A stretch of DNA of 21,384 nucleotides, taken from assembly GCA_041694815.1 (NCBI GenBank), contig JBGFSC010000036.1:1-21384 (forward strand). Reading direction: 5' to 3'. Positions 1 through 21,384 of the stretch are shown one piece after another. Positions within the stretch are counted from its first letter, which is position 1. Each line of letters opens with the position of its first letter. The notes under the pieces are model-generated. The model made no database searches. It was not told where the DNA came from and saw nothing but the letters and a program-made list of their open reading frames with translations. Source of the stretch: Elusimicrobiota bacterium (GTDB taxonomy: Bacteria; Elusimicrobiota; Elusimicrobia; UBA1565; JACRDR01). Made by a program: the position numbers and the translations under genes.

Positions 1-2
1 GT

Positions 3-4194: not shown

Positions 4195-6267
4195 CTAGGC
4201 AGTCGTTTTGGAAGCGGTGGCCTCGGCCGGCTTGACGGGAATCTTGAACACGAAGGTCGTGCCCTTGCCGACCGTCGACTCGGCCCAGATGCGCCCGCCG
4301 TGCAGCTCGACGGCCTTGCGGCAGATCGCCAGGCCCAGGCCGTAGCCGGCGCGTTTTTGTTCCCCCTCGAGCTGCTTGAACTTCTCGAAGATGGACTCGA
4401 TCTGGCTGGCCGGGATGCCGGGCCCCGTGTCGGCGACGGCGAACTTGACCATTCGGCCGTCATCGACGCCGACGGCCGTGAGCGTGATCTTGCCGCCCTC
4501 GGGCGTGAACTTGAGGGCGTTGCCGATCAAGTTCATCACCACGCGCTCGATGAGCTGTCGGTCGGCCTCGAACTCGATGGGCGCGCCGCTTTTCTCCGCG
4601 AGGAAGGTCTTGCCCTGCTTTTCCGTCGTCAGGCCGAACATCCCCTGCATCATGTCGAGCATCTTGTGGGTGTCGCTCTTCTCGATGCGCAGCGTCAAGG
4701 TCCCCGATTCGAGTTTGGCGGCGTCCAAGATGTCGGCGATGAGCTGCTGGAGCGTGGCCGTCGACTGGCGGATCACGGGGATATAGGTGTTGGCGCGCTC
4801 ATCGAGCATGCCTTTCTGGACCATGAACTCGAGGAAGCCCTTGATCGTGCTCAACGGGTTGCGCAGGTCGTGGACGATCGAATGAAAGAACTCCTCCTTC
4901 ATCGCGTTGAGCCGCTCCTGCAGGGTAACGTCGTGCAGGAAGTACAGCACGGCCGGCTCCTTATTGCCCTGGTTGACATGCGAACAGATGAACACCTGGC
5001 ACTTGTAGTAAGTCGAATGGCCGTCTTGGCGGACCTCGATAAGTTCCTGGGAGGCGCCCTTCTTGGTCATGCGCTGGATGGAGTCGCGGAATGCCTCCAG
5101 GGGGATGCGCGCGTGCAACGGGCCGGCGCCGTCGGCGGATGCGCTCAGGCCCAACGGGGCCAAGGCTTGTCGGTTGACGTATTCGGGGTCTCCCCGGAGC
5201 GTCGCCAGGGCCACCCCGTCGGGGATGGCGTTGACCAAGGTCTCGACCTTGGCCTTCTCGGCGAGCAGGGAGTCGATCTGGATCTCCTGGTACTTCTTGA
5301 GCCGCTGCATCATCTGGTTGAATGTATCGGCCAGCTCCCTCAACTTCTCCCAACCCTCGAGCCGCACGGGCTTTTGGAATTCGTTGTGCGCGACCCGGCG
5401 CGCCCCGGCGATGAGCTCTTCCAAGGGCATCGTCAATTTCTTGGTGACGACGGCGGAGGCCAGCAGGACGCAGACCGTCAAGAAGGTGATCCCGGCTAAA
5501 AGCTCCAGGCGGAAGGTTCCCTCCGTGAGGTAGGCCTCCGCGCGGGGCTGGCGCGTGGAGACGTACCAGCCCAAGGAGGGGCTTTTCTCGAAGGCGCCGA
5601 CCCAGTCCTCGGAAGAGGCGTCCAGCCATCCCTTCTCCCCCCGCATCCCGGCGACCGGTCGTGCCCCCTCCTGACCGGGCAGGGGTCGGCCCGAGCCGTC
5701 GTACATGAAAACCCCGCCGCTCTTGCCCACCCGCCTGGCCTTGAAGCGCCGCCACAGCCCTTCGAGAGAATAACCCGCGTAAAGGATCCTCCCCCCTTCC
5801 AGCGGGTAGGCCAGGCTCAATACGGGAACATTCCCTAGAAGCTCAACCGAGCCCAAGGAGACCCGCCCGCTGCTGCGGGCGTTGGAGACGATGGGGTCGG
5901 AGGAGCGGTCCTCGAAGGCGTTTGAGGATAGGCGATTGTCGGAAGTGCGGAGGTATTCCTTGCCATCGGGCCCCAAGAGCGACAGTATGGCGAATTGAGG
6001 ATTGGCCGAGGCGCGCTGCAATATCTTGAATTCGTCCCATTTCTTGCCGCCGGCCTCCTCTAAGTCCTGCACGAAGGACAACGCTCGGTTCATGTCGGAG
6101 GCCGCCTGCTCGAGCGTTTCGACGCCAAAATGGGCCAGCTGCGCGTGGAAGGAGGACGCGTTCTCCTTGGCCATCTTGTTGGAGCGCAGCACCCAGGCGC
6201 TGACGAGAAATAGCGGGAGAAGGGAAAAGGACAATAAAACGAGAAGGACCCGTGTGAACAGGTTCAC
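4195..6267 (-). CDS. Membrane sensor histidine kinase (TM, Cache-like periplasmic region, TM, HAMP, PAS-like, HisKA, HATPase_c)
   Basis: H-box 'SIVHDLRNPL', N-box 'NLIGNALKFT', 'DTGPGI', 'IFEKF', 'GYGLGLAI'. HAMP 'LTMPLEEL...LADTFNQM'. GTG at 6267 is preferred to TTG at 6297 because TACACT lies 6 nt upstream. Confidence 0.93.
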   Translation of the reverse strand: MNLFTRVLLVLLSFSLLPLFLVSAWVLRSNKMAKENASSFHAQLAHFGVETLEQAASDMNRALSFVQDLEEAGGKKWDEFKILQRASANPQFAILSLLGPDGKEYLRTSDNRLSSNAFEDRSSDPIVSNARSSGRVSLGSVELLGNVPVLSLAYPLEGGRILYAGYSLEGLWRRFKARRVGKSGGVFMYDGSGRPLPGQEGARPVAGMRGEKGWLDASSEDWVGAFEKSPSLGWYVSTRQPRAEAYLTEGTFRLELLAGITFLTVCVLLASAVVTKKLTMPLEELIAGARRVAHNEFQKPVRLEGWEKLRELADTFNQMMQRLKKYQEIQIDSLLAEKAKVETLVNAIPDGVALATLRGDPEYVNRQALAPLGLSASADGAGPLHARIPLEAFRDSIQRMTKKGASQELIEVRQDGHSTYYKCQVFICSHVNQGNKEPAVLYFLHDVTLQERLNAMKEEFFHSIVHDLRNPLSTIKGFLEFMVQKGMLDERANTYIPVIRQSTATLQQLIADILDAAKLESGTLTLRIEKSDTHKMLDMMQGMFGLTTEKQGKTFLAEKSGAPIEFEADRQLIERVVMNLIGNALKFTPEGGKITLTAVGVDDGRMVKFAVADTGPGIPASQIESIFEKFKQLEGEQKRAGYGLGLAICRKAVELHGGRIWAESTVGKGTTFVFKIPVKPAEATASKTTA

Positions 6268-6273
6268 GCGGAC

Positions 6274-6279
6274 AGTGTA
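6274..6279 (-). promoter_or_regulatory. Putative -10 element (TACACT) for a leaderless kinase transcript
   Basis: The minus strand reads TACACT-gtccgc-GTG, with no Shine-Dalgarno sequence. Confidence 0.5.
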
Positions 6280-6291
6280 TGAAATTGCGAC

Positions 6292-6330
6292 TGGCAAATT
6301 AACCAGGCCTCTGTTATATTTAGCTTAGGA
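6292..6330 (+). promoter_or_regulatory. Putative extended -10 promoter and RBS for the REC-PilB gene
   Basis: TGGCAA-N17-TATATT with TG at the extended -10 position (TGtTATATT). AGGA at 6327-6330 precedes ATG 6341. Confidence 0.4.
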
Positions 6331-6340
6331 CTGCACTGAT

Positions 6341-8125
6341 ATGGGACTTGTAATGATCGTTGAGGACAACACCGCCTACCGTACCTTCCTGGTCCAGTTG
6401 GTCACGGCCGACGGGCATGAGGCCCTCACCGCCGCCGACGGCGTCCAGGCGCTAGAAAAGATCAAGACCAAGAGAAACGGCAAGCCCATCGAACCCGACC
6501 TCGTCCTCATCGATTACAACATGGACAAGATGAACGGTTTCGAGCTCATCAACCGGCTGCGTACGACCGAGACGACTCGCAAGACCCCCATCGTGATGAT
6601 CTCCGGCACGGAGAAGAATTTGGGCCCCGTGTTGGCCATGGAAGGGGTCAAGTTCGTGCGCAAGTTGAGCCAAACGAACGAGATACTCAACGCGATCCGC
6701 GAGCATGTCGCGCCCAACGCGCCTCCCCCGGCCGCCCACTCGGCCAAACCCTCCAACGGCTCCGCCGCGGTGGAAACGGCGCCAGCCGTGCCTGCCGCGA
6801 AAACCGAGGCCGAAATCAGGGCGGAGGAGGCGCTGCAGGCGGCCGAAAAGGAAGAGGCGGATTTAAAGCTCAAGGAGCTCATGGTCCTTTCCTCCGAGAT
6901 CACGCCCTTGACGGAGGCCAAGGAGGAGGAAAAGGAGCATAGCCACGAGGATCAGTCCCAGATGATCCGGCTCGTCGACGGCATCCTGGTAGAGGCCATC
7001 CGCCGCAAGGCCTCCGACATCCACGTGCAGCCGCAGGAGGACGCCCTCTACATCCGCTACCGCATCGACGGGCAATTGCAACAGGTGCTGACCCTGCCCA
7101 TCGCCTTCAAGGCGAACATCCCCTCGCGTCTGAAGGTCATGAGCGGCATGAACGTCGCCGAAAAGCGACTGCCCCAGGACGGGCGTTTCTCCATGAAGAC
7201 CGAGTCGGGCCAGCGCGTCGAGTTCCGCGTCAACACCCTCCCCTCCCAGCACGGCGAAAAGGTGGTCATGCGCCTCTTGCGCCACGAGAAGATCTCGACC
7301 CCGCTCAAGGATATCTTTACCCGCCCCCGCGACCTGGAGGCCGTAGAGACCGCCTTGAAGGCGCCGACCGGGCTGATCCTGGTGACGGGGCCCACGGGCA
7401 GCGGCAAGACGACGACGCTCTACGCCATGTTGGACGTAGTCAACAAACCGACGCGCAACATCATCACCGTCGAGGATCCGGTAGAAAACGAGGTGGCGGG
7501 CATCACTCAGGTCCCGGTGCGCGCGGATATCGGCTTCACCTTCGAAAAGGTGTTGAGGTCCTGCCTGCGTCAGGACCCCAACATCATCATGGTCGGCGAA
7601 ATACGCGACACGGAGACCGCCGAGATCGCCATGAAGGCGGCCATGACCGGGCATTTGGTGCTCTCGACCCTGCATACGAACACCGCTCCCCTCGCGATCT
7701 ACCGCCTGTCAACGATGGGGGTCAAGCCCTTCCTCATCGTGGCGGCCCTTAAAGTAGCGATCGCCCAGAGGCTCATCCGCCTTTTGTGTCCCCATTGCAA
7801 GGTGCAGGCTCCGCTCGACGAGGAATTGGCGAGCCAGCTGGCCAAGGAGGAACGCAAGAAGCTGGCCAAGGTATTCGTCAAGGGCCCGAAGGGCTGCGAT
7901 CATTGCGACGGAGTAGGATACAAAGGCCGCAAGGCGGTGCTGGAAGTAATGACGGTCAAGTCCCATGAAACCCGGCAGCTCATCATGGAGGCCGCCAATC
8001 CCGACAAGATACTCGAGCGCGCCAAGGCCGACGGGATGGTCCCTCTACGCGATGGGGCCATCGACCTGGTGGCGCAGGGCCTGACCTCCCTCGAAGAAGC
8101 ATTCACAATCTACTACGTCGATTAA
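6341..8125 (+). CDS. Receiver domain fused to a PilB/GspE-family (type IV pilus/T2SS) extension ATPase
   Basis: N-terminal REC (IVEDN, LVLIDYNM, MISG, VRK), then a Pro/Ala linker, 'ASDIH', 'RLPQDGR', Walker A GPTGSGKTT, 'TVEDPVE', 'LRQDPNIIMVGEIRD', His box 'GHLVLSTLHTN' and a CPHC...CDHC zinc motif. Confidence 0.92.
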   Translation: MGLVMIVEDNTAYRTFLVQLVTADGHEALTAADGVQALEKIKTKRNGKPIEPDLVLIDYNMDKMNGFELINRLRTTETTRKTPIVMISGTEKNLGPVLAMEGVKFVRKLSQTNEILNAIREHVAPNAPPPAAHSAKPSNGSAAVETAPAVPAAKTEAEIRAEEALQAAEKEEADLKLKELMVLSSEITPLTEAKEEEKEHSHEDQSQMIRLVDGILVEAIRRKASDIHVQPQEDALYIRYRIDGQLQQVLTLPIAFKANIPSRLKVMSGMNVAEKRLPQDGRFSMKTESGQRVEFRVNTLPSQHGEKVVMRLLRHEKISTPLKDIFTRPRDLEAVETALKAPTGLILVTGPTGSGKTTTLYAMLDVVNKPTRNIITVEDPVENEVAGITQVPVRADIGFTFEKVLRSCLRQDPNIIMVGEIRDTETAEIAMKAAMTGHLVLSTLHTNTAPLAIYRLSTMGVKPFLIVAALKVAIAQRLIRLLCPHCKVQAPLDEELASQLAKEERKKLAKVFVKGPKGCDHCDGVGYKGRKAVLEVMTVKSHETRQLIMEAANPDKILERAKADGMVPLRDGAIDLVAQGLTSLEEAFTIYYVD

Positions 8126-8158
8126 ACGGCGGCTTTTACGCGCTCAAAGCGCATTGTT
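8125..8158 (+). repeat. Structured element, copy 2 (short), at the convergent ATPase/regulator junction
   Basis: AACGGCGGCTTTTACGCGC starts at the ATPase stop codon and is 18/19 identical to 4120-4138. It continues into a small GCGCT-caa-AGCGC hairpin and ends in GTT. Confidence 0.55.
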
Positions 8159-8160
8159 AA

Positions 8161-8904
8161 TTAATCGTTAAGCTTATACCCGACGTTGACGACGGTCTCG
8201 ATCTTGGTTCCGAGCGCCCCCAGCTTCCTTCGCAGGGATTCGATATGCTTGTCGATGGTGCGGGTGGTGATGGTGGAATCGCTGTTCCATACTTTCTCTA
8301 AAATAAGCCCGCGCGTCAGCACCCGATTGCGGTTTTTGACCATGAAAGCCAGGAGATTGAATTCCAGCGGGGTCAGGTGCAGCGGTTGGCCGTCTAGGAG
8401 ACTCACATGGGCTTCGGAATCGATGGTCAGGGGGCCGAGGGTGAGGTGGCTGGGCCCCGCGATGCCCTCCCTCCAGAACGCGCGGCGCAGCAGGGCCGCG
8501 ATGCGCGCCGCCAAGAACTCAGGCTGAACGGAGTAGGCGAGGTAATCGTCGGCGCCGGCCTTAAGCCCCTCCGTGACGTTCTTGCTGCTGCGGAACTTGC
8601 CCGACATCAGCACGACCAAAAGCGCGCGGGTATCGGGACGCTCCTTGAGCATCCTCAGGAATTGCCATCCCGCCATTCCCGGCAGCTCGATGTCGAGGAG
8701 CAAGAGATGCGGCACCAACTGCCCCAGGCTGTCGATGAACTTGCCGTGGCTCGAGAAGCAGTCGACGTCGTAGCCGTCTAGTCGCAGGAGATTGCCCAAA
8801 TGCTCGAGCACCTCGCGGTCGTCGTCGAGGATGGCGATGCGGTAGGGCGACTGGATTTTACCCGCCGTCCGTCCGGCCTCCAGCGTAGTCTTGAGCTTAG
8901 GCAT
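8161..8904 (-). CDS. OmpR/PhoB-family response regulator (REC plus winged helix)
   Basis: 'ILDDD', 'LLLDIELPGMAG'. Winged-helix motifs 'LTPLEFNLL', 'VLTRGLILEKVW', 'RTIDKHIESLRRKL', 'IETVVNVGYKL'. Confidence 0.92.
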   Translation of the reverse strand: MPKLKTTLEAGRTAGKIQSPYRIAILDDDREVLEHLGNLLRLDGYDVDCFSSHGKFIDSLGQLVPHLLLLDIELPGMAGWQFLRMLKERPDTRALLVVLMSGKFRSSKNVTEGLKAGADDYLAYSVQPEFLAARIAALLRRAFWREGIAGPSHLTLGPLTIDSEAHVSLLDGQPLHLTPLEFNLLAFMVKNRNRVLTRGLILEKVWNSDSTITTRTIDKHIESLRRKLGALGTKIETVVNVGYKLND

Positions 8905-9289
8905 TGGACGCCTGGCGGAACAGGGCCGTGACGCGCGCCAGTACCTCGGCCGAGTCGAAGGGCTTGAGGATATAGTCGTCGGCCCCCAGCTTGAGCCCCT
9001 TGACTACCTGCTGCATCTCCGACTGCACCGTGATCATGATAATGGGAAGGCGGCCGAATTGCCTGTCCGCCCGTATCCGTTGGCAGAGGGCGTAGCCGTC
9101 GGTATCCGGAAGATTTAAATCCAAGAGCAGCATGTCCGGCACGGATTCCGCGAGCGCCTTCATGCCGTCGGCGCCGTTTTCGGCGGTTCGGACCTGGTAT
9201 CCCTGCTCGCGAAGTAGGCCCGCGAGCAGTTCCCGATAGTCGCGTTCGTCATCGACCACCAGGAGATTTTTCGTCGTATTCTCGGACAT
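8897..9289 (-). CDS. Single-domain response regulator receiver
   Basis: 130 aa with 'LVVDDE', 'LLDLNLPDTDG', 'IMIT' and 'GADDYILKPF'. All canonical residues are present and there is no output domain. Confidence 0.92.
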   Translation of the reverse strand: MSENTTKNLLVVDDERDYRELLAGLLREQGYQVRTAENGADGMKALAESVPDMLLLDLNLPDTDGYALCQRIRADRQFGRLPIIMITVQSEMQQVVKGLKLGADDYILKPFDSAEVLARVTALFRQASNA

Positions 9290-9376: not shown

Positions 9377-9637
9377 CTACCTATAGATCAGGGGGTACTG
9401 CTCCGGATTTTGAAGCGAGGCCAACTCTAAGTCCACATCGAGATCCGGCCAATAGAGATGCGTCCCGTGAAGCAAGGATACGTTATAAATTTCGGATAAC
9501 TTGCCGTTTTTAAACCACGGATACTCGCTAAAGGGCAAAAAATACTCTCTTTCGGTGATGAATATCCAGATGCCGTTCTTGGAAATGCCTTCGATTTCAA
9601 CGCCGGAAATGCCTTTGCCACGCGGCAACGATTTCAT
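9377..9637 (-). CDS. DUF2442-family putative antitoxin
   Basis: 86 aa, 'FLPFSEYPWFKNG...NV...HLYWPDLDVDL' as in DUF2442 proteins. It overlaps the 3' end of the DUF4160 gene. Confidence 0.85.
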   Translation of the reverse strand: MKSLPRGKGISGVEIEGISKNGIWIFITEREYFLPFSEYPWFKNGKLSEIYNVSLLHGTHLYWPDLDVDLELASLQNPEQYPLIYR

Positions 9638-9836
9638 TTTTGTGCTCCTCTATCACTTTTTGCAATTCCGTTAATTGCCTTGGCGTTAAGCCAATATGTT
9701 GGTTTAAAGAAACGATCGGCTCGAGCCAAAATTTTGCCTCTCCCTCAGGAGATAGAACATGAACATGAATGCGTTCCTCTTCACGTGAAAAGAAGAAGAA
9801 ACGATAATTTTTATAACGGAATATCGTTGGGCTCAA
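9597..9836 (-). CDS. DUF4160-family putative toxin
   Basis: 79 aa from TTG 9836: 'MSPTIFRYKNYRFFFFSREEERIHVHV...EAKFWLEP...IVAAWQRHF', the typical DUF4160 pattern. Confidence 0.87.
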   Translation of the reverse strand: MSPTIFRYKNYRFFFFSREEERIHVHVLSPEGEAKFWLEPIVSLNQHIGLTPRQLTELQKVIEEHKNEIVAAWQRHFRR

Positions 9837-9842: not shown

Positions 9843-9872
9843 ATTATACCTTAATGCATAGGTATTAAGGTA
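9843..9872 (-). promoter_or_regulatory. TA promoter -10 (TATAAT) overlapped by a 9-bp inverted repeat (candidate operator)
   Basis: Minus-strand TATAAT at 9848-9843 lies 6 nt before TTG 9836. TACCTTAAT-N8-ATTAAGGTA spans 9847-9872. Confidence 0.65.
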
Positions 9873-12800
9873 CGGCTGCCTGATTGCGCAGCTCGTTGAT
9901 GTGCACGGTGCGCACCGCCACGGTCGAAGTGACAATTCCCGGATCGGTCCAGGTCGGGGCGGTGGCGCTCGAGGCGACCACCGCGTCGTAGATCTTCGAG
10001 CGCAGTTCGTTGATGTGAACGGCCCGTACCGGCGTGGTGCTGGGGCTGATGCTCGGATCCGTCCAGCTGGGGGCCGAAAGCCCGCGGAAGGCCGCAATCC
10101 CCCCTGTCACGCTGCGCAGCTCCGTAACATGCGCTTCGCGTATCGTGCTGACCCAGGACGCAAGGCTCGGGTCGGTCCACGCCCAATCGCCCCTGAGCAG
10201 GATGCGCAGATTCGAGGACCAGTCGCTCCAGGAGCTTTCGTACGTCGCCGCTCGCAAATAGAGGGTGGTGGTGTTCGTCGCCAGATCCATCGTCGGCGTG
10301 AAATATACCGTGGTCCCGGCGGAGGCGGGCATTTCGGCCCAGCCGGAGCCGCTGGCGGAATATTGGAACGTGGTGCTGATGGCGACCTCGAAACCGGTGG
10401 ACGTCGAGACGCTGATCTTGGCATCCGTGCGGCTTCCTCCGTTGTTGGGCAACACGAACCATAGCTTCGGCCGCCGATTTAAAGTGAAACCGGCGTTATT
10501 GGACGGAGAGACCCAGGAAAGGAGCGCAGCTGCCGCTGTCAGGGTGCTCTTGGAGGCCTCGTAGGTGTTGCCGTAGGAGCCCAGGTTGGCGCGGTTGCCG
10601 TTGGGCGTCGGCTCGAGCGAATAGTCATCCGTGGCCGCCGCCTTATCAATCGTCTCCGAGGTCTGGGTGTCCGTGACCCAGCCGGCCGAAGGACTATAGC
10701 GCCCGGCCTCGGATTTAGGGTGGAAGTCTTCTACGCCTTGGCCCGTATTGTTCCAGAGAGGATGCGCGGAGATCGAGTTGGCGTCCTGGTTGGCGCAGCT
10801 CACGGCCCGCCAGCCTGACAGAAGTTGGCAGCTTTGGGTTCCCCATATTCCGGTATTAAAGCTATTGGAGCTAAAGAAGTCGTTATAGTTGGACATGAAG
10901 TTCGTCTGGCTGTTTGCCGAAATGCTAATGGTTGCAGAGGAGGAGCCGGCGCCCGTCACAGAGACTGAGCTAAAGAAAACGTTTCCCTTCAGTTGTGCTG
11001 CGGCGGAATTGTTTTCTAGCTTCAAGAGATAGGCGTTCGTCAACCCCGTGCCGGTGGAGTAAATGTCGTTAAACGTAAAAAGAGTGGTGGTCGTATTGCT
11101 GAGATTTGCTGCAAGAAAGCTCCCTGCCGTTTTGGCACCCGGGTTCGATATGCGATTATGGTGAATATGAAGTTTGCTCGCCCCATTTGTGTATATTCCA
11201 TAGACGGTCGAACCAGCGCCAGAGCTTCCGCGCAGATAGATATTGTTGTATTCCACCGTTGCTCCGGAAGGAAGGGCTCCAAGATAGACTCCGTAGCTGT
11301 TGGAGGTAAGAAGCGATGGCGATATCGTGTTCGAAGCAATGACCAAGGTCGTTCCGCTGTTTTGGGCATCGGCGATAATGCCATAGAGCGGACCCGGGCC
11401 TATAGTATTAGCGTAAATTCGTATATGCCCGCCGTTTGAAAGGTCCAATCGGATGGCGGAGTCGATATCGTTCGCTATAGAAAACACATTCGAGGAGATC
11501 GAAAGGTTGAAACTACCGCTATTAAATAATCGTACTCCTGCGCTGTTGCCAGCTCCGAAATAGTTGTTATTAATTATGGTTCCTATGGAAGCTATGACTT
11601 TAACTGCATCCCCGCCGCCGCTACCCTGCGTGAGATTTCCGGCAATCGTGTTTGTGCTGGACCCCGTGATATAAACACAGTCGCCGGGGATCCCTCCTCC
11701 TCCAGCGGTAATCGTGCTCTGGCTAATAAGGTTGTAGTGGCCTGAAGCAATATGGGCACCAGAACCGCTCGCGGGCGTTCCTGCTCCTCCCCCGGCAGAG
11801 CCGCCGGACATATTATTTTGAGTCGCCGTGCTTAAGCTTACAGAATCCAGGGCGAGGCCATGGCCTCCCAGTGCTCCCTCGCCGGTGCCGTAGCCCGCTC
11901 CTCCGTTGCCGCCGGTGGCGACATTGAGGCTGATCGTCATGGACGAGCTTTGGGAAAGATAAATGGCGGTAGCGCCATCCCCTCCGTTGCCGTCAACGCA
12001 GCATGGGGCGTCGCCGCCGTTGCCTCCGCTTATTAGGTTCTGCGTGATCGTGTTCGAGGACGAATTGAAAACGTAGATCCCCTGGCCTCCGAATGAAACT
12101 ACACCGCTGCCGTTGCCTCCTTCGATCCGGTTTTGGCGGATCGTATTGGAGTAGGCCGAATTGACACTGAGCGCCACGCCGCCAGGATCTCCGGTGCTCG
12201 CAGTAATTGTGCTGAAACTGAGCGTATTATTATTGGCCGCGTGTATATAAGCGGCCTCGGAGTTATTTCCCGCTCCGCCGGAAATGAGACAGGAAGTCAC
12301 CGTATTCGACGAGCCTCCGTAAAGATAGAGAGCTCGTCCTGATCCGCCGACCAAGGCAGCGGTACTATAAGAAATATTGCTTAGGGAACCATCCATGTAG
12401 AGAGCCATTTCACCATTTCCACCGAAGACGGAGACGCTGGAATAGGAAATAACGCTGAAGCTGGTGATAGAAACGCCGGCCGTATAGATGCGGCTGCTAG
12501 TGCCGCCAAGGACGCTTACACTCGATAGCGTCACGTTCGCCGAAGAGGCGCGAATGCCATAGGGGATGGAACTTGTCGGTATGATTCGAACCCCAAATAT
12601 GTTGACGCTCGAGTTGAGTACCCGGAATGCGGCCGTAGAGCCCGCCGGAGGGTCGATTACGGGATCAGGGTTTACCGATACATCCGACATGATGGTGAGG
12701 CTAGAGACCCCCGTCGCGAAGCCTTGAATGGTTACCTGTTCCGTGTAGGTGCGATTGTCCTTGATGAGCACGCAGGAATAGCCTCCGGACATGTCCGTGG

Positions 12801-15800
12801 GAATATCGGCCAGCGCGTCGTTGATCGTGGTCCGGTTACAGCCCGAAGCGCAGACCGTCTTGGTGACGGCGCAGGGCACCGCTTCCGCCAATGTTCTTGT
12901 GGAGGAAACAAAATTAAAATAGGGTCCCCGGTTGTTGCAGTTCTCCGCGGCGACTCTAAAGTAATATGTCGTCCCTTGCGCCAATCCCGTGACCGTGGCC
13001 GCATTTCCGCTGGCTGGAGCGTAGGCGTGAAACAACTCCCCGTTGAAGCTGGAATCGGTGGAGGCCTGCAGCCAATAATTCTGGACACCGCTCTCTCCGG
13101 AGCCGGTCCATTGGGCCGTCACGCTCGAGTAGAAGACACCGGTGAACTCCGGGCTGCCGGCCGAGGGAGCCGCCACCGGGGCCGCCGGTAGCGCTTGGAT
13201 GGCGGTAAACGTCGACGGCACCGCGCGCGACATGATCCAGAGATGGTGGTAGCCGCAGCCGAAGTCAGACGGGACGGTAAAGGTCAGCGTGGTTGAGGAC
13301 CAGGCGTTGGCGTAGACGTAGGTCGAAAGATTTTTGATGAAGCCGCCCGCCTCGCTCGGCCCCGGACCGCCGGAGTCAAAGGCCTTAAGATAAACCCTCG
13401 GCGCGCCCGCTCCTTGAGCCGAGTTGGCGTGATCCGATTGATGGGCGTCGGAGACAAAGGTAAAGCTCGTGCCGACGACCGTGATATTGGAGCCCGGAGC
13501 GACGGTAATGGGAGGCGCGGAACCGTTGAGCGTATTGATCTTGGGTTGGGCGGCCAGGGTGCTTCCCTGGAAATTATACTCGGTGTAAAATGCCTGCTCG
13601 GCGGAGGCAAGGGCCGCTCCCGCGGCTCCTCCCGCCAGCAGTAATTTCGCGCTCGGGGTAAGTGCCGCGATATGGTCGCGCCTGGCGGCGTTTAAGGCGT
13701 TTGCTGTCACCCAGGAGCCCAGCGCCGGGTCGAATATCTCGGTGGAGGACCAATTCGTGCTGCCGTTCCAGCCTCCGGCCACGTACACCTTGCCATCGGG
13801 AAGGAGCGTGGCGCTATGCGAGCGCCGGGCGCTCGCCATCGAGCCGGTGGAGGTCCAGATCCCGGTCCATGGGTTGTAGATCTCGGCGCTGGAAAGCCCC
13901 GAGCCACCGGCGACGAGCACGGCTCCGCTTGAGATAAGCGTCGCGCTGGGAGATTCCCGCGCCGCGTTCATCGCGTTGGCCGTCGACCAGCTATTGGCGT
14001 TCGGGTCGTAGAGCTCCGCCGTCGACAGGGCTCCGGAGCCGTTGACGCCGCCTCCCACCAGCACCTTTCCCGTGGGCAGCATCGCGGCGAAATGATTCTT
14101 GCGGGCGGAAGAAAGGCTTCCCGCCGAGGCCCAGCCGTTGGTGGCCGGATCGTAGAGCTCGGCGGTGGAGACATACGAGCTGCCGTCGTGACCGCCGACG
14201 ATTAGGACCTTGCCGTTGGCAAGCAGCGTCGCCGTATGGCTGCTTCGGGCCGCCGACATCGCGCCGGCGTTCGACCAGGTGCCGGCAGGGTCGTAGAGCT
14301 CGGCGGTCTTAAAATGCGTGGTCCCGTCGGAGCCTCCGGCGACGAGCACCTTGCCGTTGGCGAGCAGGGCTCCCGGCGCGTCCTTGCGGGCCGAGCTCAT
14401 CGAGCCGGTCGCGGCCCAGCTGCCGGCCGCCGGGTCGTAGAGCTCGGCCGTCGCCAGAACCGAGGCCCCCGCGCCACCGGCGACTAGAATCTTGCCGTTG
14501 CTTAAAAACGCCGTCGCCGGCGCCTGCCTTGCCGAGGACATCGAATTGGCGAGTGTCCAACTGCCCGCCGCCGGGTCGTAATACTCCATAGAGCTCTGGG
14601 CCGTGCTTCCGCCTCCGGGAACCATGACCTTTCCATTGGGCAATAGGATGGCCACCGTATCCTGCCGGCCCGTAAGCAAAGAGCCGGTCGCCGACCAGGA
14701 ATTGGCGATCGGGTCGTAGATATCCGCTGTGAGAAGATCTGTGGTACCACCGATGGCTATGACATTGCCGTTGGGCAAAAGCGCCGCCTGGTGACGGGTA
14801 CGAGCCGCAGCCATGTTGTTACCGGTACGAGTCCAGGTATTTTGAGCCACATCATAGATTTCCGCTGTCGACAGGCTGCTGCCTCCCGCCACAAGCACCC
14901 GGCCGTCGGTCAATAACGTCGCCGTGTGATCGGATCGCGAAGAAAGCATCGATTTGGCAGCCCCCCAGCTATGGGTCGAATAATACATCTGGCAGGTGGC
15001 GCCGCCTCCCGAACCGCCTCCCGTCATTAGCACGCGCCCGTCTCTAAGCAACGTCGCCGTGTGGATGGCCCTAGCACCGGTAAAGCTCAGGTTTGGGGCC
15101 CAATAATTATTGGAGACCGTATAGGTCGAGGAGGTAGCGAGATACGTCGCAAGGCCCGAGAGCCCTCCCGCGACCAATACTCCTCCGTCCGGCAGCAGGG
15201 TCGCCGAATGCGAGCGGCGAGCCACCGTCATCGATGTCGCAGTGCTCCAAAGCCCGGTGACCGGATTATAGATCTCGCAGGTGGCAATCGAACTGGTCGT
15301 GCCTCCGCCCATGACCAGGACGCGCCCGTCCTTGAGAAGGACCGAAGCGCCTCCATTGCGAGCCGAGGCAAGGCTGCCCGTCGTTCTCCAGGTGCCGTTC
15401 ATCGGGTCATAAATCTGAGTCATCAGCGTCGAGCCGGTGCCGCCGATAACGAGCACACGTCCATCGGCCATCAGCACGACATTGGAATCTCTCTGCGCGT
15501 TCACCATCGGCTTTCCCGTGCGCCAGGTCGGGTCGATCAGCAAGGGGTATTTGAGGCCGGAGTCGTTGAACGCCAATGTCAGCACCCACTGCCTGCCCTC
15601 ACCCCCGGCCTTTCCCAAATGATAGCTTCCCGGCACCTTTTTCCCGTCGCTATCGATGATCACGGGCGGCGTCAACTCGAGCACCGGGGAATCGTCCCCT
15701 TTTCCCAGCACCGCGAGCCGGCCTTCCCGCAACTGGAGGGAACGAATATTTTCATTGGCGGCGACACGATAGCGGAAGGCGCGATTCTCGGGCCTTCTTT

Positions 15801-18069
15801 CGCGCAATAGGTACATCTTCTCGGCCTCTCCGTGTCCTACCACGTAGAGCACGTCCGTGGCCGGGTAGGCATTGGGATAAACGAGAATCGTGCCCTCGAA
15901 TTTCGCCAGGGCCGCGCGATGCACGGACAAAGGCGTCACCTGCAACCGATAACCCTCGCTTAAAGATATGTCGATGGTGCCGTAAGACTTAGGGAAGAAG
16001 AACTCGGCTCCGGGAACGTATCCGTTGCGCGAGGCCAGGGACTCTAACGCCTCTCGTTCCGGGGCTTTGAGCTCCTCATAGCGTTTGGCGGAGCCAAGAT
16101 ACCCGTCCGTGGGCCGATACCCCGATACCTCGAGCCTGCCCCTCCGCCTGACGGCCGGCTCGTAGCGCGTGTTGGGAAAGGCCAGGAGCTTGGGTGCTAG
16201 TTCGGGAAAACGCTCAAAGACGAACTGCGCGGGGCCTGACGTGGCCTTCTTGGAGAGTCGTTCGCGTCTAAAGAGCTCCAGGTTCTGCCGCGCCTTGAGC
16301 AGCTGGGGTTCCCTGGAGAGAGCGCGCTCGGTGGTGGCGATCGCCTTTTCCACATGGCCCAGGTGATAATAGGCGGCGGCGAGATTCGTGAGGATTTTGC
16401 CTTCCAATTCGGCGGGAGCGCCCCCGCCGACGCCGCGAGCGAGCATCGACAGGGCCGCTTCGAAGCTTTCCGCCGCCGGGCGGCTTTCGCCCGACTTGAG
16501 ATACGCGATCCCGAGATTATAGAGCCCGTCCGGAACGTTGATTCGCACCTGTAAGGTTTTGCGGAAGCTGTCGATGGCGTCCTTGTAGCGCCCCTCCTGC
16601 ATGGCGATGTTGCCCACGTCGCGCAAGGCCTCGTCATAGCTCGGATCGATCGCCAAGGCGACTTTGAACTCCTCCGCGGCCCCCTTGAAATCCCCCTCGG
16701 CGGCGTATTGCCTCCCCAAGCCGTAATGCATGCGCGCGCTCTGCGGCGCGGTCTTAAGCGTGGCCAGGATCAGGCTCTTGGCACTGCGCCAATCGTAGCC
16801 TCGCCGCAGCGTCAGTAGGCTGAAGGCCAGCAGGACAATCGGGCAGAGGGCGAAGAAGCGGCCTCGGATCAAGAGTCCGCCGAGTTCTCCGGCCGCCAGG
16901 CCGAACCCGATCACGGAAAGATATAGGAATCGCTCGGCGATCACCGCCTTGATCGGGATGATATTCGAGACGGGAAGCAGGCCGATGAAAAAGAAGAGGA
17001 TGCCGAAGGAGACCCCGGGCAGCCTTCGCGCATAACGAAGCGCGAAGGCAATCGTTGCCGCGAGCAATAGGGCGCAAAAAGCCGTTTTTGGATCCAAGAT
17101 CGAGTGGCTAACGGAAAAGAGATATTCGAGGCTTAACGGAGACGGCCACACCATGAGGCGCAGGTAGGTGGCAAAACCCTTGCACATGGTCAGCATGGTG
17201 GGGTAGAAGCCCCCCGCCCAATAACCGGTCTGACCCACGCGTTCGAGCATCCAGACCCGCACGGCTAAATAAGCGCCGGCCGCGAGGAAATAGGGGAGAA
17301 CCCGCAAGAATAATCCCTTTAGCTTTTTGCGTTCTTCTGATCCCGAATATGCGTCCCAGAGTCCGAGCAGGAGGGGCAGAACGATCGCCATCTCCTTGCT
17401 GAGCAAGGCGAGCATGAAGCAGGACAGCGAGATGCCGGAGGCTCGGCCCCGGCGCAGATGGGCTATGAAAGCAAGCAGGAAGAAGAATAGAGACAATACA
17501 TTGGATCGGCTCGAGATGAAAACGACCGATTCGACCTGGACCGGGTGAACGAGGAATGTGGCGGCGGCCAGAAGCGCGGCGAACATCGTATGTTTGTGGA
17601 AACCAGGCTGCGCAGCTACTGCGTCCGGACGCAGTAGGGAGGGTGTTTGTCCGCGCTCGGCGCCGAAGGCGGCGAGCCGCGCTACAGGAGCGCGTAAACG
17701 ATCGGTTGCTCGTGCCTCAAAGAACAGCAGCGCCAACCAGAAAACCAGCCAGGCATTCCCGATATGGAGCAGCAGGTTGAGCAAGCGGTAGCCAAATGGA
17801 CGCAGTTCCCCGAGGGCATAGTTGAAGGCGAAGGACAGCGTGACCAAGGGCCTGTAATTGTCATGCGCCAATTGCGAGTCGGAGGCGAGCGTCGACGGGT
17901 CCAGGAAGAATTTGGAGACGTTTTTGAGGCTGCGTATGGACTCGTTGAGCAGCACGAAGGAGTCGTCGTCATAGACGAAGGGATGGTACAGGGTGGGGCC
18001 ATAAAGCAACAACCCTAATACAAGGAGCGCCCCCAAGCCGCCAAGAAGGGATTTCTTACCTAGCCCCAT
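9865..18069 (-). CDS. 2734-aa fusion: TMTC-like GT-C glycosyltransferase, TPRs, linker domain, 14 Kelch repeats, IPT/Ig-like, FN3, right-handed beta-helix, three C-terminal WTDP repeats
   Basis: The N-terminus has TMTC-like motifs 'PFVYDD...YRPLVTLSF...NLLLH...HPVQVESV...LLSKEMAI...AERFLYL'. Approximate spans: TPRs 16270-16760, Kelch 13580-15520, FN3 'VTGLAQGTTYYFRVAA' 12930-13150, beta-helix 10550-12870 ending in 'EPTPNGNRANLGSYGNT'. GGAG lies upstream of the ATG. Confidence 0.88.
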   Translation of the reverse strand: MGLGKKSLLGGLGALLVLGLLLYGPTLYHPFVYDDDSFVLLNESIRSLKNVSKFFLDPSTLASDSQLAHDNYRPLVTLSFAFNYALGELRPFGYRLLNLLLHIGNAWLVFWLALLFFEARATDRLRAPVARLAAFGAERGQTPSLLRPDAVAAQPGFHKHTMFAALLAAATFLVHPVQVESVVFISSRSNVLSLFFFLLAFIAHLRRGRASGISLSCFMLALLSKEMAIVLPLLLGLWDAYSGSEERKKLKGLFLRVLPYFLAAGAYLAVRVWMLERVGQTGYWAGGFYPTMLTMCKGFATYLRLMVWPSPLSLEYLFSVSHSILDPKTAFCALLLAATIAFALRYARRLPGVSFGILFFFIGLLPVSNIIPIKAVIAERFLYLSVIGFGLAAGELGGLLIRGRFFALCPIVLLAFSLLTLRRGYDWRSAKSLILATLKTAPQSARMHYGLGRQYAAEGDFKGAAEEFKVALAIDPSYDEALRDVGNIAMQEGRYKDAIDSFRKTLQVRINVPDGLYNLGIAYLKSGESRPAAESFEAALSMLARGVGGGAPAELEGKILTNLAAAYYHLGHVEKAIATTERALSREPQLLKARQNLELFRRERLSKKATSGPAQFVFERFPELAPKLLAFPNTRYEPAVRRRGRLEVSGYRPTDGYLGSAKRYEELKAPEREALESLASRNGYVPGAEFFFPKSYGTIDISLSEGYRLQVTPLSVHRAALAKFEGTILVYPNAYPATDVLYVVGHGEAEKMYLLRERRPENRAFRYRVAANENIRSLQLREGRLAVLGKGDDSPVLELTPPVIIDSDGKKVPGSYHLGKAGGEGRQWVLTLAFNDSGLKYPLLIDPTWRTGKPMVNAQRDSNVVLMADGRVLVIGGTGSTLMTQIYDPMNGTWRTTGSLASARNGGASVLLKDGRVLVMGGGTTSSIATCEIYNPVTGLWSTATSMTVARRSHSATLLPDGGVLVAGGLSGLATYLATSSTYTVSNNYWAPNLSFTGARAIHTATLLRDGRVLMTGGGSGGGATCQMYYSTHSWGAAKSMLSSRSDHTATLLTDGRVLVAGGSSLSTAEIYDVAQNTWTRTGNNMAAARTRHQAALLPNGNVIAIGGTTDLLTADIYDPIANSWSATGSLLTGRQDTVAILLPNGKVMVPGGGSTAQSSMEYYDPAAGSWTLANSMSSARQAPATAFLSNGKILVAGGAGASVLATAELYDPAAGSWAATGSMSSARKDAPGALLANGKVLVAGGSDGTTHFKTAELYDPAGTWSNAGAMSAARSSHTATLLANGKVLIVGGHDGSSYVSTAELYDPATNGWASAGSLSSARKNHFAAMLPTGKVLVGGGVNGSGALSTAELYDPNANSWSTANAMNAARESPSATLISSGAVLVAGGSGLSSAEIYNPWTGIWTSTGSMASARRSHSATLLPDGKVYVAGGWNGSTNWSSTEIFDPALGSWVTANALNAARRDHIAALTPSAKLLLAGGAAGAALASAEQAFYTEYNFQGSTLAAQPKINTLNGSAPPITVAPGSNITVVGTSFTFVSDAHQSDHANSAQGAGAPRVYLKAFDSGGPGPSEAGGFIKNLSTYVYANAWSSTTLTFTVPSDFGCGYHHLWIMSRAVPSTFTAIQALPAAPVAAPSAGSPEFTGVFYSSVTAQWTGSGESGVQNYWLQASTDSSFNGELFHAYAPASGNAATVTGLAQGTTYYFRVAAENCNNRGPYFNFVSSTRTLAEAVPCAVTKTVCASGCNRTTINDALADIPTDMSGGYSCVLIKDNRTYTEQVTIQGFATGVSSLTIMSDVSVNPDPVIDPPAGSTAAFRVLNSSVNIFGVRIIPTSSIPYGIRASSANVTLSSVSVLGGTSSRIYTAGVSITSFSVISYSSVSVFGGNGEMALYMDGSLSNISYSTAALVGGSGRALYLYGGSSNTVTSCLISGGAGNNSEAAYIHAANNNTLSFSTITASTGDPGGVALSVNSAYSNTIRQNRIEGGNGSGVVSFGGQGIYVFNSSSNTITQNLISGGNGGDAPCCVDGNGGDGATAIYLSQSSSMTISLNVATGGNGGAGYGTGEGALGGHGLALDSVSLSTATQNNMSGGSAGGGAGTPASGSGAHIASGHYNLISQSTITAGGGGIPGDCVYITGSSTNTIAGNLTQGSGGGDAVKVIASIGTIINNNYFGAGNSAGVRLFNSGSFNLSISSNVFSIANDIDSAIRLDLSNGGHIRIYANTIGPGPLYGIIADAQNSGTTLVIASNTISPSLLTSNSYGVYLGALPSGATVEYNNIYLRGSSGAGSTVYGIYTNGASKLHIHHNRISNPGAKTAGSFLAANLSNTTTTLFTFNDIYSTGTGLTNAYLLKLENNSAAAQLKGNVFFSSVSVTGAGSSSATISISANSQTNFMSNYNDFFSSNSFNTGIWGTQSCQLLSGWRAVSCANQDANSISAHPLWNNTGQGVEDFHPKSEAGRYSPSAGWVTDTQTSETIDKAAATDDYSLEPTPNGNRANLGSYGNTYEASKSTLTAAAALLSWVSPSNNAGFTLNRRPKLWFVLPNNGGSRTDAKISVSTSTGFEVAISTTFQYSASGSGWAEMPASAGTTVYFTPTMDLATNTTTLYLRAATYESSWSDWSSNLRILLRGDWAWTDPSLASWVSTIREAHVTELRSVTGGIAAFRGLSAPSWTDPSISPSTTPVRAVHINELRSKIYDAVVASSATAPTWTDPGIVTSTVAVRTVHINELRNQAAVP
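9880..10185 (-). repeat. Three C-terminal protein repeats WTDPx(8-9)(I/V)RxxH(V/I)xELR
   Basis: WTDPSLASWVSTIREAHVTELR, WTDPSISPSTTPVRAVHINELR and WTDPGIVTSTVAVRTVHINELR. Confidence 0.85.
13580..15520 (-). repeat. 14 tandem Kelch repeats (probably two 7-bladed propellers)
   Basis: I counted 14 units of W...M/L..AR..H.A.LL.(D/N)G(K/R)VLVAGG...AE(L/I)YDP. Confidence 0.9.
17592..17710 (-). repeat. Palindrome-rich element in frame inside the glycosyltransferase domain (copy 3 of the structured element)
   Basis: Contains the perfect 22-bp palindrome CTACTGCGTCCGGACGCAGTAG (17616-17637), GCTGCGCAGC (17607-17616), a GCC-TTC-GGC hairpin, and CGTTTACGCGC...TAGCGCG...GCGCGGACAA shared with 4128-4182. 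The boundaries are approximate. Confidence 0.6.
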
Positions 18070-18085: not shown

Positions 18086-21000
18086 TTAACGTCGCTCGAG
18101 TAAGGCTTTAAGTTCCTTGACTTCCTTCTTTAGATCTTCAAATTCTTCGGGAGCGACCCACGAGCGGGCGCTGACGTAGCATAAAACCGTGTCTCCGTCC
18201 TTGTCGGCGCCCTCCAAGGCCACGCCCGCCACCCAGCCGCTGCGCACCGCGCGGGCCCCGTAGCCGGGGCGCCGGCGGGAGGCGGCGATCGAATCGCCGG
18301 GGCGTATCGGGCCGTTCTCGAGGCTGATCTTGATGGGCACTCGTCCCGTCAAGGCCACCGGCACCCGATTGTCCGATATGGTGCTGCCATCCTTGAACCC
18401 GATGGTCACGCCCGGTTTGACCGACACGACGCCCAAAAGGGCCTCGCCGTTTCTGCCCGTAGGCCGGCGTACGGTCCTCATGGCGTCGGGATCGTCGTTT
18501 AAGGCCACCAGATCGCCCGGCTCCATCGGCTCGGAGACCGAGTACATCTCGGCCAGGTCGCCGCCGTAGGTGACGCCGCCGGCGGAGTAGACGATGCCGC
18601 CGGTAGATACCGTCACGATACGCTGCGTCGAGGAACTGCCGGTCGCCAGGATCAAGGCATAGCTGTCATTCGTCGAGGCTAGGACTTCGATCGAAGCGCT
18701 GGGATTGGAAACCCCGATGCCGATCTTGCCCGCGTTGACCACGAAGGTGGAGGTGGCGACCGAGAATGCGTTGCCCTGCACCGTCAAGGTCGATTGGACA
18801 ACAACGTTGTTGGTTCCGGTGACTAGATTGACGAGCGAACCCACCGTCTGCCAGGGGCTGGAACCTCCCCCTCCGCCGCCCCCGGAGGCGCTGGTACTAA
18901 TCGAGCCATCGGCCCATTTGATGTAAGATCCCGAGCCGCTGGCGAAAACGATGGGTCCGCCCCCGGCGATCGTGATGCCGGAGGAAAGCTGTAGGGCATA
19001 GGTTGCGTTACCAGGTGTCGATGTAAACGTGCTTTTTTGGAGCGGTGAGCTGCCCGAACCGAACTGGGCGTCGCCGTTGACATCGAGGTTCGTGTTGGGC
19101 CCCATCGTGCCTATGCCGATCTTGCTATTGGCGAGGTTCCCGTAGATAGCGCCACCGATATTTAATTGGCTGCTGCTTGTCGCGGAGGGAGCGTTTTGGT
19201 TGGCGCCGATGATGATATTGCCTCCGCCGCTCGTTAAGTTGAGTCCAGCGCTCGCTCCCAAAAGCGTGTTCGTGCTCCCGCTCGTTAAGGCATAGCCGCT
19301 GCGGTAACCCAGTAACGTATTTCCGGAAAAGGACTCTCCTACGGCGCCATAGCCAGCCTCGAATCCTGTCGCGGTATTCGATGATCCGATGGTGTTCCGA
19401 TTTGCGGTGTATACTCCCAAATAGACGTTGTTGGCGCCGAGGGTATTGCTTTGTCCGGAATAGGCTCCGAAGAAGGCATTACTCGCCCCGCTGGTCGTGT
19501 TATTACCGCTGAAAGCTCCCATGAACGTATTTCGGTCGGCGGTGCTATTTTGTCCCGCCTGAGCTCCTACAAAGGTCGTGGCAAAGGCCGTATTTTGCAG
19601 GCCCGCATAGTACCCAACGGCGGTATTGTAATTGGTGCTATTCGCATTCGCGCCCGCCTGGCGCCCGACAAAGGTATTGTAGCGGCTGGTTGTATTATTC
19701 TGACCGGCCTGATAACCTACGAACGTGTTGTCGGCGGTAGTGTTGTTTCTTCCGGCATCGCGCCCTAGCGAGGTAGCTCCAAGCGAATCATTAAAATCGA
19801 TCAGCCCAGGCACCTGAAATAAGTTATTAGGCGTCGGGGTGCTGATACCGACTTTCCCCTCCGAAGTAATGGTGATCGCCGCGATCCCGGTCAAGGCGGC
19901 CGATGCGGCCGTCGAAATGCTGAGGCTACCGTTGGAGGTGATAGTGGAACCCCTGACGAGCTGCAGGTTGCCCGTGGAAGTAAAAGTACTCCTCGTTGGT
20001 AAAGTCCCGATTCCGAAATTCCCAGACGTATCGATCTCCGCCCGTTCGGTTCCGCCAGTGTATATGCCTACGCCATAGTTCGTGTCCCCGAATAGTATGA
20101 TTTGCTGTCTCGTCGAACTGCCGTCTCCTACGAAGCCTGTCTGAACACCTGTTTGATCGACAAAGGTAACGTAGCTCGTGTAGCCGACATTCGTAGCCGC
20201 CGAGTTCGAGTCCTGGATATAGATCAGGGGAGCGCCATTGGAAAGGTGGAGCGTAGCTAAAGGATTGGTGGTGCCGAGACCAACGTTCCCGTCAAGCCGC
20301 ACTCGCATCAATTCGGTCCCGACGTTGTTTTGCACAGCGACGACCGGATGCCCGGTCGTCGCTGAAGTAGAGCGTACAATCAGCGTGCCATTGGACAATC
20401 CGACGGCTCCAATCCCTACCGCGCTTGTGAAAGTCTTCGAGGACGTATACGTGTTTGTTTCACCAGTACCGCCAGCTGGCAGATTCCGGAGTCCAGAGCC
20501 GTCCGCGTAGAGGATCCCCGTGGCGCTCATCGAGGCCTGGATTACCGCGGAGTTGTTCCGCCAGATTTGGACGTAGTCGGCGTCTCCCTGCACGTCGAGT
20601 GAGGTGCTCGGATTGGTCGTACCGATGCCGATCTTTCCGGTATTGACCACGAAGGTGGAGGTGCCCACCGAGAAGGCGTTGCTCTGCACCGTTAAGCTGG
20701 ATTGAACAACGACGTTATCGACCAACGGCAGGAAAAGCGAAACGACGTTGCCCGCCTTGGTCCAACCCGTCGCTGCGGAAGCGGCCGTCCCCAGCGATGT
20801 CCAGGACCCGCCGTTGGTCGAAGTCATCAGGAGGTTAGTTCCCCCATCGAAGTACATTCCGAATTGTCCGAGAGCCGAGACTGGAGGGGCCGTTATGCCG
20901 GCGAAGGTCAGGGAGCTCCGAATAATGAGGCCCCCTCCGGAAATGTCGAGACGATGAGTCGGAGTGGTTGTTCCGATGCCGACCTGGTTGAAACCATCAA

Positions 21001-21382
21001 CGAATAGGCCCGCATAGCCAGGGGTCGTCGTGGTCGAGACGATGAGCGGGGAAACGGCCGCGTTGGAACGGATCGTCAAGCTGGAGCCGAGAATCGTCAG
21101 CTGACCCGTCATCGTGTCGCCGGCCTTAAGCACCTTGGTGTTATCGGTCCCAGTGACATTGGTGAGCCCAGCGCCGTTTCCAAAGAAAGCGTGCGCGGTG
21201 ACCGAGGAGCCTGGAACGGATATAAAGCCGTTGGCTCCGGAAACGGTGACCGAGCCGGCGCTGATGCCGTAGGTAACACCAAGTCCTCCGGCCGCGGTCA
21301 CGCTCGGAGCCCCACTGAAGGTCTTAATGCCGCTGATGGTCTGGTTAGAAATGGTATCGACCATGTTGGCCGGAGCAGGGAT
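18086..21382 (-). CDS. Ser/Thr/Gly-rich tail-fibre/adhesin-like protein with C-terminal putative intramolecular chaperone (Peptidase_G2-like) domain; probably 5' truncated by the window edge
   Basis: The frame is open to the window edge. It has many (V/I)GIGTxxP repeats and about 12 'NTxxGxxAG' units (about 19200-19775). The C-terminus reads 'GGDLAEMY...PGDLV...GVVSVKPG...VPVALTGRVPIK...IRPGD...GVALE' followed by a short coiled coil. Confidence 0.85.
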   Translation of the reverse strand: MPAPANMVDTISNQTISGIKTFSGAPSVTAAGGLGVTYGISAGSVTVSGANGFISVPGSSVTAHAFFGNGAGLTNVTGTDNTKVLKAGDTMTGQLTILGSSLTIRSNAAVSPLIVSTTTTPGYAGLFVDGFNQVGIGTTTPTHRLDISGGGLIIRSSLTFAGITAPPVSALGQFGMYFDGGTNLLMTSTNGGSWTSLGTAASAATGWTKAGNVVSLFLPLVDNVVVQSSLTVQSNAFSVGTSTFVVNTGKIGIGTTNPSTSLDVQGDADYVQIWRNNSAVIQASMSATGILYADGSGLRNLPAGGTGETNTYTSSKTFTSAVGIGAVGLSNGTLIVRSTSATTGHPVVAVQNNVGTELMRVRLDGNVGLGTTNPLATLHLSNGAPLIYIQDSNSAATNVGYTSYVTFVDQTGVQTGFVGDGSSTRQQIILFGDTNYGVGIYTGGTERAEIDTSGNFGIGTLPTRSTFTSTGNLQLVRGSTITSNGSLSISTAASAALTGIAAITITSEGKVGISTPTPNNLFQVPGLIDFNDSLGATSLGRDAGRNNTTADNTFVGYQAGQNNTTSRYNTFVGRQAGANANSTNYNTAVGYYAGLQNTAFATTFVGAQAGQNSTADRNTFMGAFSGNNTTSGASNAFFGAYSGQSNTLGANNVYLGVYTANRNTIGSSNTATGFEAGYGAVGESFSGNTLLGYRSGYALTSGSTNTLLGASAGLNLTSGGGNIIIGANQNAPSATSSSQLNIGGAIYGNLANSKIGIGTMGPNTNLDVNGDAQFGSGSSPLQKSTFTSTPGNATYALQLSSGITIAGGGPIVFASGSGSYIKWADGSISTSASGGGGGGGSSPWQTVGSLVNLVTGTNNVVVQSTLTVQGNAFSVATSTFVVNAGKIGIGVSNPSASIEVLASTNDSYALILATGSSSTQRIVTVSTGGIVYSAGGVTYGGDLAEMYSVSEPMEPGDLVALNDDPDAMRTVRRPTGRNGEALLGVVSVKPGVTIGFKDGSTISDNRVPVALTGRVPIKISLENGPIRPGDSIAASRRRPGYGARAVRSGWVAGVALEGADKDGDTVLCYVSARSWVAPEEFEDLKKEVKELKALLERR
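18714..18807 (-). repeat. Internal duplicated module of the fibre-like gene (other copy about 20622-20716)
   Basis: NVVVQSTLTVQGNAFSVATSTFVVNAGKIGIG versus NVVVQSSLTVQSNAFSVGTSTFVVNTGKIGIG, also similar at the DNA level. Confidence 0.85.
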
Positions 21383-21384
21383 AT

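Follow-up and report, generated by a model that had tools for sequence, protein, structure and literature searches.

A TMTC-like membrane domain fused in frame to a giant Kelch-containing protein of Elusimicrobiota, with a candidate threonine acceptor position

What do the TMTC-type proteins of bacteria modify? Prokaryotic homologues of the TMTCs that join a GT-C membrane domain to tetratricopeptide repeats (TPRs) have been noted, and are called not yet well characterised in the available text of PMC7801869. A stretch of 21,384 nucleotides from an uncultured Elusimicrobiota bacterium (assembly GCA_041694815.1, contig JBGFSC010000036.1, positions 1 to 21,384 of the forward strand; hereafter the window) carries a gene that makes this a testable question. 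It encodes a single giant protein in which a TMTC-like domain and its TPRs are followed by a long region, here called the passenger. The fusion names a candidate substrate within the same chain, and the comparison of relatives that have lost the membrane domain with relatives that retain it names a candidate acceptor position. The best explanation of the whole, to which we assign a probability of about one half, is that the membrane domain anchors the protein for export and also glycosylates Thr and Ser residues of its own unfolded strands.

The gene occupies positions 9865-18069 of the minus strand as one uninterrupted frame of 2734 amino acids (aa), as the original prediction had described, with one stop and on a contig free of N. 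Its enzyme part and the core of its passenger were resolved into the following features.

16780..18069, minus strand: GT-C (TMTC-type) membrane domain, aa 1-430, with 11 predicted membrane helices and a predicted N-in/C-out topology
17965..17970, minus strand: DD motif (D34, D35), equivalent to TMTC motif M1 as defined in the available text of PMC7801869; in 28/28 fused copies covering the site
16255..16779, minus strand: TPR domain, aa 431-605, placed by Pfam TPR matches and the structure model
15523..16236, minus strand: unnamed beta-sandwich domain, aa 612-849, ending in YPLLIDP, with a galactose-mutarotase-like fold and weakly DUF7948-like
13582..15522, minus strand: Kelch repeats (Pfam), aa 850-1496, bearing the candidate acceptor position two residues past the Trp of each blade
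13165..13581, minus strand: conserved Ig-like domain at the end of the core module, aa 1497-1635, present in 19/19 fused relatives

Hydrophobic segments are confined to residues 8-416, and beyond residue 416 no 19-residue window exceeds 1.6; the predicted lack of an internal signal peptide therefore holds, and neither a start nor a signal peptide was found at the junction between the GT-C part and the passenger. The Ser plus Thr content is 7-12% up to residue 900 and 20-29% beyond. Pfam placed TPRs at 426-601, Kelch repeats at about 850-1500, a fibronectin type III (fn3) domain at 1641-1716 and a beta-helix, all four of which had been named beforehand; the label 'Ig/IPT' is without Pfam support, and the 240-aa domain between TPRs and Kelch (612-849) had been overlooked. 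'Ig-like' is presumably an apt name for aa 1497-1635, a conserved domain of about 140 aa with no Pfam match. Twelve Kelch repeats were matched by pattern, and their spacing suggests about 14, that is, two propellers. Pfam detected no cadherin domain in the giant protein, and the GT-C part has no Pfam or NCBIfam match of its own.

The fusion is genuine. A junction-spanning query gave continuous in-frame matches in 8 of 40 related genomes, the five genomes of the same family contributing none of the eight. In the databases, 12 proteins 1666-3439 aa long are 34-47% identical to residues 1-900, and those whose source is named come from Elusimicrobiota. The sandwich domain was found in 21 of the 401 genomes sampled from the phylum. 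Among 23 loci besides the window, the GT-C domain is joined in frame in 15, which come from several families, and is missing from 6, with contig ends truncating the other 2; the proposed search for the same architecture elsewhere was thus productive, and the two parts are not always separate genes in relatives, the junction being kept in independent assemblies. When the best matches of this enzyme clade were collected from the 401 genomes, 13 of 14 were fused and the remaining one lies at a contig end. The sandwich-plus-Kelch module also occurs without any GT-C in many other bacteria, where it takes the N-terminal position. Passenger tails range from none to more than 6000 aa, a type 9 sorting domain closing some of them.

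The enzyme domain is TMTC-like by fold and motifs. Its AlphaFold model matches GT-C structures, the closest folds including ArnT and ALG12, and the polytopic fold shared with PglB/AglB, ArnT and PMT places it in the GT-C superfamily; the acidic catalytic motif of the first outer loop is intact (D34-D35, within FVYDD at residues 31-35), as had been claimed. The 11 membrane helices predicted by the model, basic residues in every other loop and TPRs thereafter are consistent with a TMTC-type protein. In the enzyme tree, the fused copies fall into clade A (26 rows, Shimodaira-Hasegawa-type support 100) and a small clade B (3 rows, different TPR). TMTC motifs M1 (DD), M3 (acidic residue), M4 (KE) and M7 (ERxxY) are all present, and across the 29 fused domains DD is kept in 28/28, the RP of M2 in 28/28, HP in 29/29, KE in 28/29 and ERxxY in 29/29. 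Two motifs differ: M2 SHKSYRP reads AHDNYRP here and in clade A, which keeps the His and YRP and loses the Lys, and the DW of EL4 is EY here and in clade A, clade B having DW. Pfam TMTC_DUF1736 had no match in this genome, matched 2 of 14 fused domains with a best E of only 0.066, and was found in 4 of 120 among the homologues listed. Because two motifs differ and the DUF1736 match is missing, we do not file the protein as a TMTC1-4 member. Searches of sequence against solved structures returned the TPRs only, or nothing, and Foldseek gave no useful match for the sandwich domain or the GT-C part. Median identity to relatives is 41% for GT-C, 44% for Kelch, 32% for the sandwich and 34% for the Ig-like domain; the GT-C level is like that of Kelch and above those of the other two, which is more than a plain anchor should need. 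From this motif conservation the enzyme looks active, and we take it to be catalytic. TMTC-like proteins are common in prokaryotes, with 388 matches among 8000 scored candidates and 8 in this genome.

The history of the fusion supplies the comparison on which the acceptor position rests. In the passenger tree, all fused passengers lie in one branch together with 16 rows showing no GT-C (two of them, L032 and L035, being contig-edge fragments). These GT-less rows are interspersed with the fused ones, and a clade containing only fused copies can be rejected (approximately unbiased test, p-AU 7e-30). As the enzyme and passenger trees share subgroups, repeated loss of the GT-C domain appears to be the simplest reading. 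GT-less copies retain one N-terminal hydrophobic segment: relative to its sister G030, G040 is missing approximately residues 30-397 in frame with one helix kept, along with two further TPR deletions of 31 and 15 residues, and in G331:C54 helix 1 and the DD loop lead straight into the passenger (E 7e-7, small set). Clade B (L055, L056 and P0023) carries the same passenger after a different TMTC-like enzyme and TPR, and in two of its three members the C-terminus is a type 9-like tail and the adjacent gene is PorV-like. Two independent fusions, or an enzyme swap, for clades A and B were considered and are not supported, a single A+B clade being unrejected (p-AU 0.42 and 0.19). The enzyme tree rejects a position of clade B within the sister group of its passenger (p 0.002); the passenger tree does not reject a position outside that group (p 0.40).

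Candidate acceptor residues were sought in the Kelch blades, scoring proteins with at least three scored repeats. Clade A (23 proteins) has Thr two residues after the Kelch Trp in 55% of its repeats, compared with 17% in GT-less copies (14 proteins), 10% outside (56 proteins) and 8% in clade B (3 proteins); Thr exceeds 40% at this position in 17 of 23 fused proteins and in 3 of 14 that are GT-less. In eight disjoint sister comparisons, hand-picked from the passenger tree, Thr at Trp+2 is higher on the fused side in 8/8 and is the best of 40 positions x 20 residues, with a sign-flip p of 0.0078, the minimum possible for eight pairs. In the same pairs Kelch Ser plus Thr is higher on the fused side in seven, with one tie, and Kelch Thr in eight; the sandwich domain has no Ser/Thr shift (4/8 pairs). 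The window's own protein has Ser or Thr at Trp+2 in 6 of 10 scored repeats. This association is suggestive and not proof, and it lends indirect support to the self-glycosylation raised in the original prediction, support that weakens in the stricter test described below. N-glycosylation was also considered and set aside, N-X-S/T being unenriched (0.82 of expectation in fused copies vs 0.87 and 0.86 in the other groups).

Several points weigh against self-glycosylation. The Thr signal was found post hoc, and no new sister pair has been added to it: a new protein search gave five matches, none usable as a pair, and a search of the order's 101 genomes gave no new sandwich-bearing locus among the matches listed. 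When Thr content was binarised (threshold 40%) and compared across the well-supported branches of a tree that left out the Kelch columns, about 3 comparisons were concordant, 0 were discordant and 4 were tied, with a median p of 0.25, and unpaired Kelch Ser plus Thr does not differ significantly between fused and GT-less copies (p 0.21). The repeats are homogenised within genes, so per-gene differences are inflated, and Kelch Ser plus Thr correlates with base composition (rho -0.47). There are also exceptions, namely the clade-B fusions (8% Thr), G286 (10%), the low values of G030 and G034, and the GT-less G331:C54 (80%). Three stand-alone enzymes of about 600 aa (P0167-P0169) nest inside clade A, so this type of enzyme is also maintained with no passenger attached; a search for the three loci found none of them. 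In this 97.8% complete genome, a GtrA flippase had no match, and seven further stand-alone GT-C paralogues could act in trans. The genome has 20 GT2 genes, at most candidates for the making of a lipid-sugar donor.

If self-glycosylation is correct, helix 1 would target the chain to the membrane, with the GT-C domain replacing a signal peptide, and the passenger would follow the TPRs into the periplasm in an N-in/C-out topology. A sugar, which need not be mannose, would be moved from a lipid carrier onto Thr and Ser of the same chain, foremost the Thr two past the Trp of each Kelch blade. The enzyme may act in cis on the unfolded chain held by its TPRs, by analogy with TMEM260, which acts on unfolded strands held by its TPRs (available text of 10.64898/2026.03.17.711096). 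The passenger itself is probably glycan-binding or adhesive, the term 'adhesin' being suggested by its domain types. In its most specific form, the proposal is of a self-glycosylating exported protein in which a TMTC-type enzyme is the signal anchor of its own substrate, O-glycans are placed on a defined Thr per blade during threading, and the passenger is released, with type 9-like export in some lineages; we advance this fuller version tentatively, as somewhat less likely than not.

The GT-C domain could instead be active in trans on other envelope proteins, a lipid or a glycan, with the fusion anchoring the passenger or tying both to one transcript or site. Stand-alone members of the same enzyme clade exist, at least 6 of the 23 loci keep the passenger without the enzyme, ArnT and ALG12 among the closest folds are modifiers of lipids or glycans, and the clade-B fusions are without the Thr signal. 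We nevertheless regard action in trans as the less likely reading, as the Thr position follows the presence of the enzyme in all eight hand-picked pairs, the 23 loci showed no conserved neighbour that could serve as substrate, and the best matches of the clade are fused in all but the one case at a contig end.

It is improbable that the passenger is a periplasmic carbohydrate-binding scaffold, presenting a glycan or polymer acceptor to the enzyme, instead of a surface adhesin. Appended binding modules are known from some GT-C enzymes, such as EmbC and AftD. Here the domain adjoining the TPRs has a mutarotase-like sandwich fold common in carbohydrate-active enzymes, the Kelch part resembles the propellers of GlxA and galactose oxidase below the cut-off, this copy is without a type 9 tail, and the boundary of TPR and passenger shows no conserved cleavage site. 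Asp-Pro self-cleavage, known from other proteins, would be conceivable at the invariant IDP. A shared fold shows no function, however, many other bacteria have this module with no GT-C attached, and tails of none to more than 6000 aa, some with a type 9 sorting domain, point to export.

That the GT-C domain is an inactive relic, kept solely as a membrane anchor, is very improbable: its repeated loss with one helix retained and the two deviating TMTC motifs (the HK of M2 not kept, the DW of EL4 replaced by EY in clade A) would fit a relic, but one helix is enough for an anchor, and all the main residues for catalysis and donor binding hardly vary among copies that share about 40% identity. A false join of two adjacent genes by assembly or sequencing, for which one could cite the metagenome-assembled contig and stand-alone enzymes of the N-terminal part's length, is refuted for practical purposes by the same in-frame junction in independent assemblies (8/40 relatives, 12 database proteins and 15 loci from several families) and by the lack of a start or signal peptide there.

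Outside the core module, the giant gene has a variable tail, and a second long open reading frame (ORF) lies upstream of it.

12910..13149, minus strand: fibronectin type III domain of the variable tail, Pfam fn3 above cut-off, in 7/19 relatives
10540..12867, minus strand: right-handed beta-helix region of the variable tail, rich in Ser, Thr, Asn and Gly, part of it above the Pfam Beta_helix cut-off
9868..10224, minus strand: unnamed C-terminal repeated TDP...HxxELR segments, placed by sequence, in 1/19 relatives
18086..21384, minus strand: upstream Ser/Thr-rich fibre-like ORF, a neighbour only, open at the contig end, its stop 16 bp before the ATG of the giant gene

The beta-helix region has some match in 11 of 19 relatives and is shared with a second giant ORF of the same genome (C15). 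The TDP...HxxELR segments have no NCBIfam match; look-alike unnamed clusters come from Acidobacteriota and phages, which is weak evidence. The fibre-like ORF lies at the 16-bp spacing first reported. It contains repeated GIGT segments and has no Pfam or NCBIfam match above cut-off; its C-terminus, with no profile match, presumably recalls the intramolecular-chaperone domains of trimeric fibres. Only 1 of 23 related loci has a homologue of it, in a GT-less setting, so glycosylation of the fibre, which the original prediction had offered, finds no support as a conserved role; the prediction's proposals of a fusion, a TMTC-type GT-C and a membrane-anchor role are supported.

The giant gene's stop is directly followed by a DUF4160 and DUF2442 small-gene pair (9377-9836, minus strand) in an AT-richer stretch. 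The remainder of the window encodes a middle/C-terminal fragment of FliG open at the contig end, a coiled-coil histidine-kinase-like ORF and MotA and MotB homologues (1-4121, plus strand), then a Cache/HAMP/PAS histidine kinase, a receiver fused to a PilB/GspE-type ATPase and two response regulators (4195-9289). Many of the order's 101 genomes also encode a second family of Kelch proteins, about 1900 aa long, with no sandwich match among the rows listed.

The export route may differ between lineages. PorV-like genes lie within 9 of the 23 loci, and the fused relative P0085 ends in a type 9 sorting domain above cut-off; the type A (type 9) C-terminal sorting domain is absent from the window's protein. 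Two more fused relatives match what we take to be the sorting-domain pattern. The genome has 12 PorV-family frames, 11 sorting-domain matches above cut-off and an SprA-like frame of 1842 aa scoring below cut-off (1842 codons, G000 C19:8790-14315); a frame of 13,791 codons is followed by a PorV-like gene (G000 C38:58850-100222). A chain with 11 inner-membrane helices and an outer-membrane sorting signal would need to be cut or to span the periplasm. One fused group (C-termini of P0002, P0006, P0009 and L053; L054:433-2260) ends in a domain that resembles small exported proteins encoded directly after the gene in G016, and this end domain possibly provides a pilin-like attachment route.

Should self-glycosylation be borne out, a bacterial TMTC-type protein would for the first time be paired with its substrate, and its sequon could be read from evolution. 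Action in cis would furthermore couple the export of a giant envelope protein to its glycosylation in a new way, and would offer a simple model of an enzyme family with ties to human disease. The closest known systems are TMTC1-4, which share the 11-helix GT-C followed by TPRs, the DD, RP, HP..E, KE and ERxxY motifs and a C-terminus predicted on the far side of the membrane; as described in the available text of PMC7801869, they are two-part proteins ending in TPRs and act in trans on cadherins, whereas here 2130 more residues follow, the HK of M2 and DW of EL4 are changed, and the DUF1736 profile is without a match to this copy. The O-mannosyltransferase TMEM260 likewise combines GT-C with TPRs and modifies beta-strand Ser/Thr of extended chains before folding, but it carries a luminal Rossmann-like domain and its substrates are separate proteins (available text of 10.64898/2026.03.17.711096). 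Among the matches listed for the giant protein, there is no sequence or fold match to TMEM260.

Sandwich-plus-Kelch proteins secreted by other bacteria, with Myxococcaceae as one named source, are weakly DUF7948-like and resemble the passenger in a sandwich ending YPxxIDP, Kelch repeats and a variable tail; they differ in mostly starting with a signal-peptide-like stretch instead of GT-C and in having 10% Thr at Trp+2. A copper radical oxidase of the galactose oxidase or GlxA kind finds no support (NF052501 92 bits vs a cut-off of 800; only three Cys in aa 846-1640). Omnitrophota, a related group, have giant membrane-linked proteins with glycosyltransferase and TPR domains and a proposed cleavage, but the domains named there are GT1 and GT5, and 'GT-C' and 'kelch' are absent from the available main text, the supplements of which might list such proteins (10.1101/2023.11.21.568195). 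A full-text literature search limited to papers outside subscription gave, among the matches listed, no GT-C fused to a Kelch or adhesin region and nothing on TMTC-like proteins of Elusimicrobiota. The parts are of known kinds, and their arrangement and the candidate acceptor position appear new. Dedicated adhesin glycosylation systems, of which HMW1C is another, use separate, cytoplasmic enzymes with nucleotide sugars, as is the case for TibC/AAH, serine-rich-repeat and HMW1C-type enzymes. The TibC/AAH systems of autotransporters and the serine-rich repeat systems are alike in devoting a glycosyltransferase to one large Ser/Thr-rich exported protein (PMC4358343 and the available text of PMC6973325), whereas here the enzyme is of the lipid-donor membrane type and is part of the chain.

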